Below, one piece after another: positions 13,039 through 20,862 of a stretch of DNA of 64,000 nucleotides (position 1 is the first letter of the stretch; each line of letters starts with the position of its first letter). Made by a program: the position numbers and the translations under genes. The notes under the pieces were generated by a model. That model ran no database searches. It saw only the letters and a list, made by a program, of their open reading frames with translations, and was not told where the DNA came from. The DNA comes from Escherichia coli. Its GTDB lineage: Bacteria > Pseudomonadota > Gammaproteobacteria > Enterobacterales > Enterobacteriaceae. The stretch lies in assembly GCF_003334335.1 (NCBI RefSeq), contig NZ_QOWQ01000017.1; one strand, given 5' to 3'.

Positions 13039-14709
13039 ATGGATAATGCAGAACTCGCCATTGGTATCGATCTCGGTACTACCAATAGTTTAATTGCCGT
13101 CTGGAAAGACGGTGCCGCGCAATTAATTCCAAATAAGTTCGGTGAATATTTAACACCATCCATAATTAGCATGGATGAAAATAATCATATTTTAGTCGGA
13201 AAACCGGCTGTATCACGGCGTACTTCGCATCCGGATAAAACGGCAGCGTTATTTAAACGTGCAATGGGCAGTAATACCAACTGGCGGTTAGGCAGCGACA
13301 CATTTAACGCGCCAGAACTGTCCTCTTTGGTATTACGCTCATTAAAAGAAGATGCCGAAGAATTTCTGCAACGTCCGATTAAAGATGTGGTGATCTCCGT
13401 TCCGGCTTATTTCAGCGATGAACAACGCAAGCATACCCGTTTAGCAGCGGAGTTAGCCGGGTTAAATGCGGTACGCTTAATTAATGAACCCACAGCAGCT
13501 GCGATGGCGTATGGCCTGCATACCCAACAAAATACCCGTTCGCTGGTGTTTGATCTCGGTGGCGGCACGTTTGACGTTACGGTGCTTGAGTACGCCACGC
13601 CGGTGATTGAAGTTCACGCCTCCGCTGGCGACAACTTTCTTGGTGGCGAAGATTTTACCCATATGCTGGTCGATGAGGTTTTAAAACGCGCGGATGTCGC
13701 CAGGACCACGCTTAACGAGAGTGAACTGGCAGCCTTGTACGCCTGTGTGGAAGCGGCAAAATGTAGCAATCAATCGCCATTGCACATTCGCTGGCAGTAT
13801 CAGGAAGAAACGCGGGAATGCGAATTTTACGAGAACGAACTGGAAGATTTGTGGTTGCCGCTGCTCAATCGCTTGCGAGTGCCGATTGAACAGGCGTTGC
13901 GCGATGCGCGTCTGAAGCCGAGTCAAATCGACAGTCTGGTGCTGGTTGGCGGCGCGTCACAAATGCCGCTGGTGCAGCGAATCGCCGTGCGTCTGTTTGG
14001 CAAATTACCGTATCAAAGTTACGATCCGAGCACCATTGTCGCGCTGGGCGCAGCAATCCAGGCCGCCTGCCGCTTACGCAGTGAAGATATTGAAGAGGTA
14101 ATCCTCACTGATATTTGCCCTTACTCGTTGGGCGTTGAAGTTAACCGCCAGGGCGTTTCCGGCATTTTCTCGCCGATTATTGAACGAAACACCACTGTGC
14201 CCGTGTCGCGTGTAGAAACTTATTCAACCATGCACCCGGAACAGGATTCAATTACGGTTAACGTCTATCAGGGAGAAAACCACAAAGTTAAAAACAACAT
14301 TCTGGTGGAATCCTTCGATGTGCCGTTGAAGAAAACCGGGGCTTATCAGTCGATTGATATTCGCTTTAGTTATGATATCAACGGGTTGCTTGAAGTTGAC
14401 GTGCTTCTGGAAGACGGCAGCGTTAAGTCCAGAGTGATTAACCACAGCCCGGTAACATTGAGCGCGCAGCAGATTGAAGAGAGTCGGACGCGGTTATCCG
14501 CATTGAAAATTTATCCGCGCGATATGCTCATCAATCGCACCTTTAAAGCCAAACTGGAAGAGTTGTGGGCGCGGGCGCTGGGTGACGAGCGAGAAGAGAT
14601 CGGCCGGGTGATCACCGATTTTGATGCGGCGTTGCAGTCAAACGATATGGCCCGCGTGGATGAAGTTCGGCGGCGGGCGAGCGATTATTTAGCCATTGAG
14701 ATCCCATAA
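13039..14709 (+). CDS. hscC: Hsp70-family chaperone HscC
   Basis: 556 aa; Hsp70 signatures IGIDLGTTNS and DLGGGTFD; recognised as HscC, not DnaK or HscA. Confidence 0.93.
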   Translation: MDNAELAIGIDLGTTNSLIAVWKDGAAQLIPNKFGEYLTPSIISMDENNHILVGKPAVSRRTSHPDKTAALFKRAMGSNTNWRLGSDTFNAPELSSLVLRSLKEDAEEFLQRPIKDVVISVPAYFSDEQRKHTRLAAELAGLNAVRLINEPTAAAMAYGLHTQQNTRSLVFDLGGGTFDVTVLEYATPVIEVHASAGDNFLGGEDFTHMLVDEVLKRADVARTTLNESELAALYACVEAAKCSNQSPLHIRWQYQEETRECEFYENELEDLWLPLLNRLRVPIEQALRDARLKPSQIDSLVLVGGASQMPLVQRIAVRLFGKLPYQSYDPSTIVALGAAIQAACRLRSEDIEEVILTDICPYSLGVEVNRQGVSGIFSPIIERNTTVPVSRVETYSTMHPEQDSITVNVYQGENHKVKNNILVESFDVPLKKTGAYQSIDIRFSYDINGLLEVDVLLEDGSVKSRVINHSPVTLSAQQIEESRTRLSALKIYPRDMLINRTFKAKLEELWARALGDEREEIGRVITDFDAALQSNDMARVDEVRRRASDYLAIEIP

Positions 14710-14713
14710 ACAC

Positions 14714-14752
14714 GGCTGCCGGATGCGGCGTAAACGCTGCATCCGGCATCGG
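14714..14752. repeat. REP element between convergent hscC and djlC
   Basis: gctgccggatgcggcgtaaacgctgcatccggcatc, near-perfect REP palindrome. Confidence 0.7.
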
Positions 14753-14768
14753 CGCAAAAAACACATCG

Positions 14769-16220
14769 TCAGCTAAACAACATCGCGATTTTGCCGAGAG
14801 CATAACCTATCACCAGCACCGTTAAACTGATTTTGATAATGCTGGTAATGCTCTGTGGTTTTTCACCCTCATCATTTTTTTCTTCATGATTTTCAGGTGT
14901 TGGCTCATCGACATCTTCATCCTCCGGCTCGAGTTTCACTTTCGTCAAAAGCATCCGGGTGACAATGGCCTCTAATGGATGAGCATCTCCGCCTTCCAGC
15001 CTTGTATTAAGACGGGCCAGCATCTCTTGTTTCGGAAACGCTTCAAGTACTACCTGTTCCGCTACCCGATACAAATCCAGGAACGGTGAATCTTGCTCTG
15101 TCTCGCTACCGACTCTCGATTTCCACCACGCCCATGCTTTGCGCTTGAAGAATAACGACTCAATAAACGATTGACCTAACGGCGATAATTTTCCGCTATG
15201 TAAAATCTCCGCCCATAACAGCCGCGTCCGGGCGCTCTCACCAGGAACATATTTCAGCGGTTGACCTTGCGCATCTACCATGCTCCGCGCTTCGATAACC
15301 ATCACTAATAACGCGAAATAATCCGGGCAATGACGCTTGCTCCACTGCAACAACAAATTATCAGCTTGTATAGATGGGTAACTTTCCCAGTACGCGCAGA
15401 GATCGGCAAGCAGGCTTTCCCCCTCGCCGCAGTACAAACGTTGTGCACACAAGTAATACCGGGCATCTTCGCTTTCTGGTTCTTCCGTTTGCCACTGTTG
15501 AGCGACAGGAATGAGTTCCGCCATACCTGTTTGCACCGAGCTGTACCAGCGCAACAGTTTGCGATGTAACTTTGCATCATCAGGAATTAACCACGGACCT
15601 TCCATCGCCAAAAACGCAGTGACATAGTCAGGATGGTAACGGCAGCAACGTTCCAGCGCGAAGTAATACTCAACAGTCTGGTTCTGCAACGCAATGGGAT
15701 ATTCCAGAAGGCTAAGGAAATCGAAACAATCACCAGCCTGAATGGCCTCAAGAAAAGCCTCCCTTTCTTCCTCATCCATTCCTTCGCTGTCATTAAATGA
15801 ATGCCAGTTCAAACGCTCTGCCAGCAAAGAAGCACAATTTAATGAAAGATATCGCGCTTCTATGGCGATTGCACACAGCGGCCAGCGTAATTGATCGACA
15901 TCCTCCATGTTCCAGGTATTTAATTGCTGAATAAATTTCTGCCAGGCGGAAGGCTGAAAACGATCACTTTCTGAATCCAGTAATGTCCTGAATGCACGTA
16001 GTATTTCATGTTCAACGGCAGCATCTTTTTCTTCATCATCTGCTTCCTCGACAGGATTTACCGCCAGTCGCAGGGCCTCTTCATAGGCCTGGCGTAATGC
16101 TTTAAACCCTTGCGGATCGGTTTCGGGATGACACAACGGTAAGCGAGCAAGATAAGCCTGGCGGATAATGTCTATTTGCGTCGTGCTTTCAATTTCGAGG
16201 ATTTGCCAACATGTTTTCAT
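14769..16220 (-). CDS. djlC: J-domain-like co-chaperone of HscC, C-terminal membrane anchor
   Basis: 483 aa; N-terminal J-like domain with HPE tripeptide, C-terminal hydrophobic tail; paralogue of djlB; 4-nt overlap with ybeU. Confidence 0.88.
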
Positions 16221-16924
16221 AGGTCGCTCACATCCTTAAGCGTTACCGGGCATTCAGACTGGACAGTTAATGGCTGCCAGGGAAGCGTGGCATAGAAACG
16301 ATCGCTTCCCGCTGCCAGCTCTTCGAACATACGACTCCCGGCGCTATCGTATTTGTACAGGGTTAGCGCCTCGCGTAGCGAAGTGTTGTCTTCGCACTGA
16401 GAAGATTGCCAGTAGAGACGTCCTAACGAATAGGCGGAAAAATAGTGCATCCAGCTGTGATAGTAATGGTGAGCTCGTACATAGACGCGCGATTGCAGCC
16501 ATAAACTCTCTTCTTCCGTCAGCCACTTGTTGAGCACACCGACCCGTGACAGAAACCCCATTCGAACATAATCCCAGGCTTTGATTCCCCCTTCCCCACA
16601 GCACATAGCGGTTTGGGCAACGAATTGGGTATAAATCAACCCTCTCTCCGAGCCACCAGCAATTAATGCTTTCCACTCTTCAGGGGAAGAGCGATGCCAT
16701 GTCAGATATAAGCCAGCTAAATCATTGGCATGACCATCATCAGTCATCTGATAAATAGTCTGAATTAAATCATCACGATTATTTATTCCCCAGGATGATG
16801 AGAGCTCGAATTCTTTTATCCCAGTATACATTTTTGGCGAGTCATGCGCGGGTTTGCAACCCTGATTAAGTATTTCCATGGGCGCAGAAAGCGCAAAAAG
16901 AAGATATTGTTCTTCCTTATTCAT
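16217..16924 (-). CDS. ybeU: DUF1266-family protein
   Basis: 235 aa; clear paralogue of YbeR in this window; translationally coupled to djlC. Confidence 0.88.
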
Positions 16925-17025
16925 TTGTTAATAATCCCTTAAGTGCATTAACTGACTACTTTTTTATTATTGATGAGTATAAACTTGACGCTTTCAAAAT
17001 AAAAAGAAAATCGAAGCATTCACAC

Positions 17026-17580
17026 ATGAATAAAAAATTAATGTATATATTCGCAATTTTTATAGTTGCAGCAATTACCTGTATTAGCCAACCCAAGAAA
17101 ACGACGTTGCGTGATAAAGCCATGGTGAATTATGCCTTTGATTATTTAAGCTCACCGGGCAGTCTTCCATTCACCACGGCAGCCACGGAGCTTTCCGCGA
17201 TTCATGGTCACTCAACGTCGCAATATCGCCTTGGAGAATTTTATCTTCATGGTAGCGACGGTAAACCACTGGATTATACACAGGCGAGATACTGGTATGA
17301 GCAATCAGCGGAACAGGAAAATCCACGCGCGCAAAGTAAACTGGGGTGGATCTACCTCAAAGGTCTGGGGGTCAAACCCGACACCCGTAAAGCAATTCTC
17401 TGGTATAAGGAAGCAGCTGAACAAGGGTATGCTCATGCTCAATATACTTTAGGTTTGATCTACAGAAATGGCTCAGGTATTAATGTTAACCATTATGAAT
17501 CTCAAAAATGGTTAAAACTGGCCGCCAAACAACATTACAAAAATGCGGAAAGATTACTTGCCGGGCTTCCCGCACATTAA
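17026..17580 (+). CDS. ybeT: Sel1-repeat (TPR-like) protein
   Basis: 184 aa with N-terminal signal/TM segment and Sel1 repeats ([30 protein letters not shown]); AT-rich gene. Confidence 0.85.
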
Positions 17581-17589
17581 CGTCGACTG

Positions 17590-19017
17590 TCACCCGAACA
17601 GATGGAGTATTTTCCCTATCAAACCAGCAAAGATAAAAATATAGAAAATAATTTTAATGATGCCCAGACAGCCTGGCCCACCATCGTCAACGGGCATTGG
17701 CTGCGGTTGCGGCTCCGGTTCAACAGTTTGCTTCTCGGTAAAATTCGCCGCCTGAATTAATAATCGACGAATAATTAATGCTTCCAGTGGACAACGATTT
17801 TCTGCATCAAGGCGGCTCACAATCGGCATTAATGATTCTTCTGTAGGTTGGCAGGCCTGCACTAATTGTTTGGCAACTAGATATAATGGCCATAAGGTAT
17901 GTTCTGTATCACGCGTGAGTGAGATCCGCGGCTTACGTCCTTTGTGCAAAACCATCTCGACCAGTGAACGCCCCAGCGCAGAGAGTTTTTCATCGCTGAG
18001 TATTTCGTATAAATGAAAACGCGTACGGGCGCTGTCGCCGGGGACATAAAGTAGCGGTTTTCCCTGATCGTTAACCAGATCACGCGCTTCAATCATCATC
18101 ACCAGTAATGGGTAATAATCGACCCGATGCTGACGGCACCATTGCAACATTAAAGCATCCGCCTGGGTGGAGGGATACTCGCGCCAGTAGTCACAAAGTT
18201 CTGCCAACAGGCTTTCGCCTTCTCCACAATAGACGCGTTGCGCGTATTCATAATAAGGCGCATCTTCATTATCAGGTTCAGTTTCCCGCCATGACTGGGC
18301 GTAATCCAGAAGTTCGGGGATATCCAGGCGACCTGCGCTATACCAGCGGAGTAAATTTCTGTGCAGTTTTGCATCATCGGGGATAATCACTGCGCGATGT
18401 TGCGCTAAATACAATGTCAGCCATTGTGGATGCGATGACCAAATCCGAGCGAACATTTGGTAAAAATCGATGGTGTCATTTTGCACGGCAACGGGCAGAT
18501 GCAGAATGGTCTGGAAGTTAAAAACATTCCCCTTCGCAATGGCATATAAAAAGGATTCCAGTTCTTCTTCGTCTATTTCCCCGGTATTTTCCTCCTGTAA
18601 CCACCGCAATCTTTCTGCTAATAACACCACGCACTCGAAGGATAAATGGGCAGTGTTCATGGCGATTGTGCACAGCGACCAGCGTAATTCATCAATCTCC
18701 TCCATCGAGCAATAATTTAATTGCTGAATGAATCGCTGCCAGGCGGAGGGCAGAAAACGTTCACTATCAGAGGCAAGTAACGCACGAAAGGCGAGCAGAA
18801 TTTCATGTTCTGCTACCTCATATTCTTCTGGTTGCCAAACAGATTTAGCAGGCGACTGCGCAATCCGTAGCGCCTCCTCATACGCCTGACGAAGTTGTTT
18901 AAAACCCTGCGGATCGGTTTCTGGATGAAAGGACGGTAACAGCGCCAGATAAGCGCGGCGGATAATATCGACGTCAGTCGTTTCCTCTATATCGAGGATC
19001 TTCCAGCAATTTTTCAT
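17590..19017 (-). CDS. djlB: J-domain-like co-chaperone, C-terminal membrane anchor
   Basis: 475 aa; paralogue of djlC with same HPE tripeptide and hydrophobic C-terminus; 4-nt overlap with ybeR. Confidence 0.88.
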
Positions 19018-19721
19018 AGGTCGCTCATATCCTTAAGCGTTTCCGGGCATGCAGAATAGTAAGCCAATGGTTGCCAGGACAAGGTAGGGTAATACGCATC
19101 ATCACTGGCAAATAATTGATAAAACATATCATTGCCGGAATCGTCGTATTCTTTACGCGCTAAGAATTCGCGTAATAAAGGCAGATGATCATCTTCGGGA
19201 GACTGCCAATATTGCCGACCAAAGGTATAACCGGCAAAGTATTGCCGCCAGTTACTATAATAACGTAGAGCCCGTAGATGAATGCGCGACTGGATCCATA
19301 GACTTTCTTCTTCGCTCAACCAGTTATTAAGTACGCCCATTCGGCTTAAAAAACCCATCCGGACATAATCCCAGGCTTTGATTCCCCCTTCGCCACAGCA
19401 TTCGGCGGTGCTGGCGACAAATTGCGCATAAGCCTGACCTTGCTCATTTAGTTCAGCAAGATAGTCACGCCATTCACATGGCGAATAACGAAACCAGCGG
19501 TGATAAAACCCTGCCAACCGAGCGGCATGACCGTTATCGATCATTCGGTGAATTGTGCGCAGCAGGTCATCACGGTCATCAATTCCCCATGAGGAAGAAA
19601 GGTCAAAAAAGCATGTACCTAAATACATTTTGGGTGATGAATGCGAAGGTAAACAGCATTCATTGCGTATTTCCATCGGAGTGGAAAGTGCAAACAATAT
19701 TTTTTGCGACTCCATGTCCAT
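19014..19721 (-). CDS. ybeR: DUF1266-family protein
   Basis: 235 aa; paralogue of YbeU. Confidence 0.88.
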
Positions 19722-19878: not shown

Positions 19879-20862
19879 ATGATAATGATTTTCACGTCAA
19901 GTTGCTGCGATAATTTATCAATAGATGAGATTATCGAACGTGCTGAAAAAGGCGATTGCGAGGCTCAATATATTGTTGGGTTTTATTATAATCGCGATAG
20001 CGCAATTGATTCTCCGGACGACGAAAAAGCCTTTTACTGGCTGAAGCTGGCCGCTGAGCAAGGTCATTGTGAAGCACAGTATTCCTTAGGGCAAAAGTAT
20101 ACCGAGGATAAAAGCCGTCATAAAGATAATGAGCAAGCCATCTTCTGGCTGAAAAAAGCTGCCCTACAAGGCCATACTTTCGCTTCCAACGCCCTTGGCT
20201 GGACACTGGATCGTGGAGAAGCCCCCAATTATAAAGAAGCGGTTGTCTGGTATCAGATAGCCGCGGAGAGCGGAATGTCTTATGCGCAAAATAATCTTGG
20301 GTGGATGTACAGAAATGGCAACGGAGTCGCAAAAGACTATGCGCTGGCATTTTTCTGGTACAAACAAGCTGCATTACAAGGCCATAGTGACGCGCAAAAC
20401 AATCTGGCCGATCTTTATGAAGACGGAAAAGGCGTTGCTCAAAACAAGACACTCGCCGCATTCTGGTATTTGAAAAGCGCACAGCAGGGTAATCGGCACG
20501 CCCAGTTTCAAATTGCATGGGATTATAACGCTGGCGAAGGGGTGGACCAGGACTATAAGCAAGCGATGTACTGGTATCTGAAGGCTGCCGCTCAGGGGAG
20601 CGTCGGCGCTTACGTCAACATCGGTTATATGTATAAACACGGACAAGGCGTTGAGAAAGATTATCAGGCTGCCTTTGAATGGTTTACGAAAGCCGCTGAA
20701 TGCAATGACGCCACTGCCTGGTATAACCTGGCCATTATGTATCACTACGGAGAAGGAAGACCTGTCGATCTCCGACAGGCTCTCGACCTGTATCGTAAAG
20801 TTCAGTCATCCGGAACCAGAGATGTCAGTCAGGAAATTCGTGAGACTGAAGATTTACTGTAG
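19879..20862 (+). CDS. ybeQ: Sel1-repeat (TPR-like) protein
   Basis: 327 aa with about seven Sel1 repeats (AQYxxG...G); exact start (M1 or M3) uncertain. Confidence 0.85.
   Translation: MIMIFTSSCCDNLSIDEIIERAEKGDCEAQYIVGFYYNRDSAIDSPDDEKAFYWLKLAAEQGHCEAQYSLGQKYTEDKSRHKDNEQAIFWLKKAALQGHTFASNALGWTLDRGEAPNYKEAVVWYQIAAESGMSYAQNNLGWMYRNGNGVAKDYALAFFWYKQAALQGHSDAQNNLADLYEDGKGVAQNKTLAAFWYLKSAQQGNRHAQFQIAWDYNAGEGVDQDYKQAMYWYLKAAAQGSVGAYVNIGYMYKHGQGVEKDYQAAFEWFTKAAECNDATAWYNLAIMYHYGEGRPVDLRQALDLYRKVQSSGTRDVSQEIRETEDLL

Follow-up and report, generated by a model that had tools for sequence, protein, structure and literature searches.

We present an analysis of DjlC and DjlB of Escherichia coli, which are very probably HPE-variant class C J-domain paralogues, anchored in the inner membrane by their C-terminal tails and directing the soluble Hsp70 HscC to membrane clients. 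The tail anchoring of the two proteins has already been published, with experiments for DjlC, and the finding adds no new knowledge in this respect.

Organization of the hscC-djlC-djlB locus

The window, that is, the whole stretch of 64,000 nucleotides that was analysed, belongs to the E. coli chromosome (RefSeq assembly GCF_003334335.1, contig NZ_QOWQ01000017.1) and bears the genes in the order hscC, djlC-ybeU, ybeT, djlB-ybeR, ybeQ. The features, with the evidence for each in brackets, are as follows.

13039..14709, plus strand: hscC, a specialised Hsp70, 556 aa (ORF; RefSeq "molecular chaperone HscC")
14769..16220, minus strand: djlC (ybeV), co-chaperone bearing a tail anchor and an HPE-type J domain, 483 aa (ORF; RefSeq "co-chaperone DjlC")
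16056..16220, minus strand: J-like domain of DjlC, residues 1-55, HPE at 31-33 (weak Pfam DnaJ match; alignment; PMC13254874, PMC10410713)
14850..14939, minus strand: acidic linker of DjlC with some proline, residues 428-457 (composition; AlphaFold2 pLDDT)
14772..14852, minus strand: C-terminal membrane tail of DjlC, residues 457-483, modelled helix 458-481 (hydropathy; model; hydrophobic moment; Peschke et al. 2018 as quoted in PMC6794478)
16217..16924, minus strand: ybeU, DUF1266 protein, 235 aa (ORF; RefSeq DUF1266 domain-containing protein)
17026..17580, plus strand: ybeT, Sel1/TPR-repeat protein, 184 aa (ORF; RefSeq tetratricopeptide repeat protein; Sel1-type NCBIfam matches)
17590..19017, minus strand: djlB (ybeS), DjlC paralogue, 475 aa (ORF; RefSeq "J domain-containing protein"; BLASTP)
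17593..17673, minus strand: predicted C-terminal membrane tail of DjlB, residues 449-475 (hydropathy; Hessa scale; moment; PMC8215388)
17674..17739, minus strand: proline-rich linker of DjlB, residues 427-448 (composition)
18853..19017, minus strand: J-like domain of DjlB, residues 1-55, HPE at 31-33 (Pfam DnaJ match; alignment)
19014..19721, minus strand: ybeR, DUF1266 protein, 235 aa (ORF; RefSeq annotation)
19885..20862, plus strand: ybeQ, Sel1-repeat protein, divergent from ybeR-djlB (ORF; RefSeq; NCBIfam matches)

The open reading frames of djlC (14769-16220) and djlB (17590-19017), both on the minus strand, lie where an earlier, sequence-only reading of this DNA had placed them. The range of 14769-17665 which it gave for the two tails does run from the djlC stop codon through the djlB codon 25 from the end, but it also spans ybeU and ybeT, which the claim does not concern. 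The stop codon of ybeU overlaps the start of djlC by 4 nt, and the stop codon of ybeR overlaps the start of djlB to the same extent. The hscC and djlC genes are convergent with 59 nt between them, and so are ybeT and djlB, whose stop codons are separated by 9 nt. DjlB and DjlC are 49% identical over their full length (BLASTP E 2e-154), while YbeR and YbeU share 59% identity.

Hydropathy analysis revealed an N-terminal hydrophobic segment in YbeT (residues 5-23, hydropathy 2.00), and no hydrophobic N-terminus was found by this means in YbeQ. The scan for promoters and terminators yielded sites no commoner than in shuffled sequences. PADLOC, applied to the seven proteins of the cluster, returned only sub-threshold Sel1/TPR noise and gave no pointer to a known anti-phage system. 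The NCBIfam collection provided no model for DjlB, DjlC or YbeR, and the YbeU match was only weak.

DjlC and DjlB end in a single hydrophobic segment

To describe the tails, we used the Kyte-Doolittle hydropathy (19-residue window, threshold 1.6) along with the Hessa 2005 and Eisenberg scales and AlphaFold2, which is the kind of topology check that the sequence-only reading had proposed. The top Kyte-Doolittle window reaches 1.99 in DjlC (residues 464-482) and 2.39 in DjlB (residues 450-468), and in each protein it is the sole window of at least 1.6, in line with the earlier claim that each chain has one hydrophobic stretch, placed at its very end. The runner-up windows (1.36 in DjlC and 1.53 in DjlB) are at residues 115-133, within a confidently folded helical domain. 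No N-terminal signal sequence or second membrane segment was found in either protein by hydropathy, and both N-termini are polar stretches that belong to the J domain. The summed Hessa 2005 values of +1.4 kcal/mol for DjlC and -0.7 (-0.67) kcal/mol for DjlB mark the tails as moderately hydrophobic membrane segments.

In the AlphaFold2 model of DjlC, the tail is a helix of 24 residues (458-481, about 36 A), preceded by a disordered linker with pLDDT below 50 at residues 435-456, and only 2 of the 483 residues lie beyond it. The hydrophobic tail of DjlB (449-475) likewise reaches the C-terminus, the best window ending at residue 468 of 475. The linker, of low complexity in both proteins, had been described as charged and proline-rich, which turned out to be half true for each: the 34 residues ahead of the DjlC tail are charged, with 13 D/E (38% vs. 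17% overall) and 4 P, whereas those ahead of the DjlB tail are proline-rich, with 6 P (18% vs. 6% overall) and 5 D/E.

The mean hydrophobicity of the tail is 0.50-0.65 in DjlC and 0.72-0.84 in DjlB, and the hydrophobic moment is 0.19-0.27 and 0.16-0.31, respectively. Because the mean hydrophobicity is high and the moment low, we assign the tails to the membrane-spanning type rather than to surface helices; an amphipathic helix lying in the membrane plane was rejected owing to the low moment.

A point against a spanning tail is the shortness of its unbroken hydrophobic core, 13 residues in either protein, flanked by a conserved basic pair, K463/K477 in DjlC and K455/K469 in DjlB. With only 12-13 residues between the basic residues, a true membrane span needs both of them to snorkel, and one positive charge should be near the periplasmic side or cross to it. 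The same register is kept across the homologues, namely a basic residue, 12-13 hydrophobic residues, a second basic residue, and 3-6 further residues to the end.

Membrane insertion in published experiments

As quoted in PMC6794478, DjlC is a "bona fide" tail-anchored inner-membrane protein; its targeting and insertion depend on the transmembrane domain, which also suffices for both (Peschke et al. 2018, J Mol Biol 430:389, pmid 29246766). According to the same source, the insertion needs SRP, FtsY, YidC and DnaK and is Sec-independent, the protein cross-links to YidC, and the DjlC tail by itself is enough to bring a fluorescent reporter to the membrane. As quoted in PMC8215388, DjlC raises the ATPase activity of HscC (Kluck et al. 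2002, J Biol Chem 277:41060, pmid 12183460); there DjlB is called tail-anchored, and DjlB, DjlC and HscC are all reported to lie under the limit of detection during exponential growth. That DjlB, too, stimulates the HscC ATPase is an assumption of the literature. The E. coli DjlC of these studies is the same gene as ours, for which tail anchoring, post-translational insertion and the stimulation of HscC have all been reported. For DjlB, the same conclusions follow from its 49% identity to the characterised DjlC and from prediction; in the literature searched, we found no experiments on DjlB insertion or HscC localisation.

The short core between two basic residues suggests another arrangement, to which we give a low probability: a monotopic, interfacial anchor that stays within the cytoplasmic leaflet and does not cross the membrane, the basic pair being placed among the head-groups of that side. 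In its favour, the unbroken hydrophobic stretch is of just 12-13 residues between two conserved basic residues, these residues project from one helical face, 40 degrees apart, and the transmembrane domain of DjlC is termed the "less hydrophobic" one (PMC6794478). Such an anchor is, however, hard to reconcile with a 24-residue helix whose low hydrophobic moment (0.15-0.38) is unlike that of in-plane amphipathic anchors, and with the hydrophobic residues that continue outside the basic pair (ITSII, IAMLF). Moreover, the DjlC transmembrane domain is YidC-dependent and cross-linked to YidC, and the authors treat it as inserted (PMC6794478).

An inner-membrane tail anchor, with the J-like domain in the cytoplasm, as the sequence-only reading had suggested, is the topology we prefer, being supported by hydropathy, AlphaFold2, the hydrophobic moment and the conservation among homologues.

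The tail is conserved among homologues

The tail is kept in 81 of the 83 full-length homologues (from Escherichia, Salmonella, Citrobacter and Enterobacter), and of the two exceptions, one is truncated and the other carries a point substitution. It is also present in internally deleted variants, and it is absent from variants that appear to be frameshifted and have C-termini unrelated to the family. When the sequences were shuffled, an equally hydrophobic window arose within the last 26 residues in only 28 of 20,000 cases for DjlC and 9 of 20,000 for DjlB. This rarity counts against the reading that the terminal stretches are functionless products of chance or decay, in favour of which there is nothing more than the low expression of djlB, djlC and hscC (PMC8215388). 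The presence of the tail in both paralogues, 49% identical, and in nearly all homologues, together with the published experiments, refutes that reading and leaves it a negligible probability.

More distant homologues of about 890 aa (e.g., P0023 and P0046) resemble DjlB and DjlC in having the HPE J domain and the PF27158 middle domain, and also in their gene neighbourhood, with DUF1266 upstream and an HscC orthologue as a neighbour. They differ in being about twice as long and in ending not in a single tail but in a multi-pass anchor of 1-3 membrane segments with a Pfam DUF805 match (E 1.9e-5) and an "NRYGPPP" motif. The replacement of the tail by a multi-pass DUF805 region indicates that it is the attachment to the membrane that is conserved.

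This observation also bears on whether the tail might mainly bind protein, either as a built-in mimic of a client peptide, recognised by HscC or DnaK, or as a docking helix for the DUF1266 protein. HscC prefers peptides with positive charge and hydrophobic residues (PMC8215388), and the tail combines hydrophobicity with a conserved basic pair; the biogenesis of DjlC needs DnaK (PMC6794478), and the DUF1266 gene is always directly upstream. Nevertheless, the delivery of a fluorescent reporter to the membrane by the DjlC tail alone (PMC6794478) and the multi-pass domain at its place in the distant homologues, where the membrane location is the conserved property, make such a role very improbable.

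The J-like domain and the middle domain

In the Pfam search, the J-like domains gave DnaJ matches below significance at residues 4-47, with an E of 0.036 for DjlC, a weak match, and 0.0017 for DjlB, while for P0023, a homologue of 30% identity, the E value was 4.7e-6. In DjlC and DjlB, HPE replaces HPD, and each of the 65 aligned homologues has the same H31, P32 and E33; the canonical invariant His-Pro-Asp tripeptide is absent from DjlC, DjlB and all of these 65. In the literature HPE is described as the sole tolerated replacement of HPD, and DjlB and DjlC are named as its example (PMC13254874, PMC10410713). The atypical character of the J domain, with its HPE and weak Pfam DnaJ matches, counts against the explanation we favour, in which the tail-anchored J proteins serve HscC.

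The AlphaFold2 model of DjlC is all-helical with a mean pLDDT of 86.9, and the middle domain of the DjlB/DjlC type corresponds to PF27158. A PDB fold search with this model gave no match at E of 0.001 or below, TM-scores being about 0.2. The resemblances to TPR and alpha-solenoid proteins were set aside as generic, the middle domain being without a solved relative.

HscC and the DUF1266 gene accompany the J gene

In 9 of the 10 loci with enough flank, an HscC orthologue is either adjacent to the J gene or close by. Orthologues of 45-81% identity are present in L002, L003, L004, L008, L009, L010, L012 and L013, and none was found within the visible flank of L011. HscC itself matches the DnaK and HscA models of NCBIfam below their cut-offs. 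No membrane segment was found in it, the best 19-residue hydropathy window being 1.19; HscC is soluble and the presumed partner of DjlC and DjlB. Our literature search found nothing that links HscC with DUF1266, nor HscC as an Hsp70 with phage defence, and DUF1266 alone was encountered in an unrelated context only.

In all the related loci examined, the immediate upstream neighbour of the J gene is a DUF1266 gene.

Discussion

Taken together, the data point to DjlC and DjlB as tail-anchored co-chaperones that would act as follows. The C-terminal helix, lying within about 30 residues of the end of the chain, would exit the ribosome only after translation has ended, so that insertion of the tail would be post-translational. 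The N-terminus would stay inside and the last few residues would be outside, thereby leaving in the cytoplasm the N-terminal J domain and an all-helical middle domain of about 370 residues, tethered by a flexible linker of 20-30 residues. The J domain held at the membrane would then stimulate ATP hydrolysis by soluble HscC, which may be loaded onto its clients at the membrane surface. DjlB, judging from its sequence, is probably inserted like DjlC. DjlB and DjlC would in this way recruit HscC physically, and its putative clients would be met at the membrane.

Among the known systems that resemble them, DjlA of E. coli also belongs to the class C J-domain proteins and is likewise attached to the inner membrane for an Hsp70 acting there, though it pairs with DnaK and not with HscC. 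Its layout is the reverse of that of DjlC and DjlB, with a membrane segment at the N-terminus and a canonical HPD J domain at the C-terminus. The J domain of DjlB is about 23% identical to that of DjlA, which is listed among the DnaK partners (PMC8215388). Flk and similar tail-anchored proteins share with DjlC the single C-terminal membrane segment and the Sec-independent insertion aided by SRP and YidC, but their cytoplasmic domains are unrelated, and the transmembrane domain of Flk exceeds that of DjlC both in hydrophobicity and in its dependence on SRP (PMC6794478).

A further likeness is seen in eukaryotes. Yeast Hlj1 is a tail-anchored J protein of the ER membrane, which has a cytosolic N-terminal J domain and recruits cytosolic Hsp70 to the membrane surface; unlike DjlC and DjlB, it possesses the canonical HPD motif, is inserted by the GET pathway and is devoid of their middle domain. 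The resemblance should be regarded as an analogy, not as homology.

We tentatively suggest, while thinking it somewhat less than an even chance, that the tail is one interchangeable form of an obligatory anchor in a three-gene unit, not described as such, of DUF1266, HPE-J and HscC. The DUF1266 gene would overlap or abut the start of the J gene, the anchor of the HPE-J protein could be either a single tail or DUF805, and the DUF1266 protein might be an adaptor or a client. The conserved register might then serve beyond anchoring, e.g., in pairing with a membrane partner.

As the literature has set out before, tail anchoring shows how a specialised soluble Hsp70, HscC, could be directed to the inner membrane, and it makes DjlC a model substrate for the insertion of tail-anchored proteins in bacteria.

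Organization of the locus

The ORF list and the RefSeq annotation concur on the following gene layout.

13039-14709, + strand, hscC
14769-16220, - strand, djlC
16217-16924, - strand, ybeU (DUF1266), preceding djlC
17026-17580, + strand, ybeT (Sel1/TPR)
17590-19017, - strand, djlB
19014-19721, - strand, ybeR (DUF1266), preceding djlB
19885-20862, + strand, ybeQ (Sel1)

The region is flanked by gltJKL and rihA on one side and by ybeL and leuS on the other. The segment 13000-21000 showed 100% identity to E. coli chromosomes and found a match in 5,368 of 5,426 complete genomes. Only 3,663 of the 5,368 matching E. coli genomes contain 80% or more of these 8 kb. DjlC and DjlB share 49% identity along their entire length, and YbeU and YbeR share 59%; a Sel1/DUF1266/J-protein module is thus tandemly duplicated beside hscC, as ybeQ-ybeR-djlB and ybeT-ybeU-djlC. 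A protein of 422 aa (P0253, on 97 contigs) is 42% identical to DjlC and bears a DjlB-type tail at its end; it could therefore have arisen by recombination or by internal deletion of a DjlB-type protein.

Most of the 59-nt convergent gap between hscC and djlC is occupied by a REP-like imperfect palindrome, gccggatgcggcgtaaacgctgcatccggc (14717-14748). Just 9 nt separate the stop codons of ybeT and djlB, another convergent pair, and no terminator was recognisable there (17580-17590). A PADLOC scan gave no defence-system match.

The C-terminal tails of DjlC and DjlB

The sequence-only reading proposed that both J-like proteins end in a single hydrophobic segment that anchors them in the inner membrane, where they recruit HscC. 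ORF translation yielded exactly the C-termini quoted there, and the tails lie at 14772-14852 (djlC, -) and 17593-17673 (djlB, -). The best 19-residue Kyte-Doolittle window reached 1.99 in DjlC (residues 464-482) and 2.39 in DjlB (residues 450-468); all remaining windows stayed below 1.6, so that the segment is indeed single in both proteins. Only 28 of 20,000 shuffles of DjlC and 9 of 20,000 of DjlB placed a window at least as hydrophobic within the final 26 residues. The summed Hessa 2005 values (+1.4 kcal/mol for DjlC, -0.7 kcal/mol for DjlB) are as in moderately hydrophobic membrane helices. Hydropathy revealed no comparable segment in HscC, YbeU, YbeR or YbeQ. The preceding linker, described as charged and proline-rich, fits this only partly in each protein: over 34 residues it is acidic in DjlC (13 D/E, 4 P) and proline-rich in DjlB (6 P, 5 D/E).

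The N-terminus of YbeT (17026-17100, +) is also hydrophobic (hydropathy 2.0), and its paralogous neighbour YbeQ carries no such segment; the YbeT sequence points to a signal peptide or signal anchor, which would place the protein in the periplasm or in a membrane.

The AlphaFold2 model of DjlC, built on an alignment of 65 sequences, is all-helical (mean pLDDT 86.9) and contains a helix of 24 residues (458-481; block-mean pLDDT 87-89, dropping to 69 at the last residues), preceded by a stretch with pLDDT below 50 (435-456). Eisenberg-scale values for the tails (mean hydrophobicity 0.42-0.84, moment 0.14-0.41) fall in the membrane-spanning region of the plot and not among surface helices.

Among 83 full-length homologues from Escherichia, Salmonella, Citrobacter and Enterobacter (90% clustering level), a C-terminal window of at least 1.6 was kept in 81; one exception is truncated inside the tail and the other has an Ile-to-Asn change. 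Internally deleted variants retain the tail, and it is absent in apparently frameshifted variants, whose C-termini are unrelated to the family. Across homologues the tails keep a fixed register: a first basic residue is followed by 12-13 uncharged residues, including a Gly near position 8-9, then by another basic residue and a final 3-6 residues; GYALG in the DjlC tail is a GxxxG motif.

The chief remaining doubt is the geometry of the tail. The uninterrupted hydrophobic core has just 13 residues in DjlC and DjlB (12-13 across homologues), and the two conserved basic residues that bracket it share one helical face; a monotopic anchor therefore keeps a small probability. Still less probable is a tail serving mainly as a protein-binding element, since the DjlC tail alone sends a reporter to the membrane, as described in PMC6794478, and distant homologues carry a real membrane domain at the tail position.

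The J domain and distant relatives

The J domain of DjlC and DjlB is atypical. Its match to Pfam DnaJ is weak (E 0.036 and 0.0017, respectively), and its tripeptide is HPE, invariant in 65/65 aligned sequences. Published work describes HPE as the sole substitution for HPD that is tolerated and cites DjlB and DjlC as the example (PMC13254874; PMC10410713). A PDB fold search with the DjlC model found no significant structural relative of its middle domain; in precomputed annotations, the newer Pfam family PF27158 ('DjlB_C_2nd') spans part of this domain.

Among 1.84 billion representative proteins searched, 1,575 matched, 43 of them at E <= 1e-30. A large group of ~890-aa homologues (P0018-P0056; L004, 6677-9376; L013, 5001-7730) has both the HPE J domain and the middle domain, with 30-38% identity. 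Unlike DjlC and DjlB with their single tail, these proteins end in 1-3 hydrophobic segments with an 'NRYGPPP'-like motif, in a region matching the Pfam multi-pass inner-membrane domain DUF805 (E 1.9e-5). Membrane attachment is therefore conserved, with a variable type of anchor. Another subgroup carries TPR repeats at the C-terminus and lacks a membrane segment.

An HscC orthologue (45-81% identity) adjoins the J gene or lies a few genes away in 9 of the 10 loci with usable flank (the window, L002, L003, L004, L008, L009, L010, L012 and L013); none was found within the visible flank of L011. All the membrane-anchored HPE-J genes examined have a DUF1266 gene directly upstream (16217-16924 and 19014-19721, -, in the window; L003, L004, L005, L007, L008, L010-L013), usually with a 4-nt overlap (stop/start ATGA in the window), and this arrangement persists in homologues down to 30% identity. 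It is absent for the TPR-type relative in L009 and for the third Salmonella paralogue (P0028 in L007). In the literature searched, no paper connected DUF1266 with HscC.

Discussion

Optimal insertion of DjlC needs SRP, FtsY, YidC and DnaK; its transmembrane domain forms cross-links with YidC and is inserted independently of Sec (Peschke 2018, pmid 29246766, as cited in PMC6794478). [quoted passage not shown] Deletion of hscC, or of djlB and djlC together, increases Cd2+ sensitivity (PMC8215388).

Taken together, hydropathy, the Eisenberg plot, the AlphaFold2 helix, the conservation in 81/83 homologues and the published insertion of DjlC support a membrane-anchored topology. The observation is thus confirmed and its interpretation supported; given the published insertion and HscC stimulation by DjlC, that interpretation is the view already in print. 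Very probably, once translation ends, SRP and DnaK would help to capture the tail and YidC would insert it in an N-in orientation, such that the J domain and the middle domain would remain cytoplasmic and flexibly tethered. The HPE J domain would then set off ATP hydrolysis by HscC, so that the chaperone becomes locked on clients at the surface of the membrane. DjlB presumably inserts as DjlC does, and HscC would be physically recruited to the membrane. The most useful outcome for this family is the upstream DUF1266 gene, the anchor that takes the form of either a tail or DUF805, and the basic-12/13-basic register of the tail.
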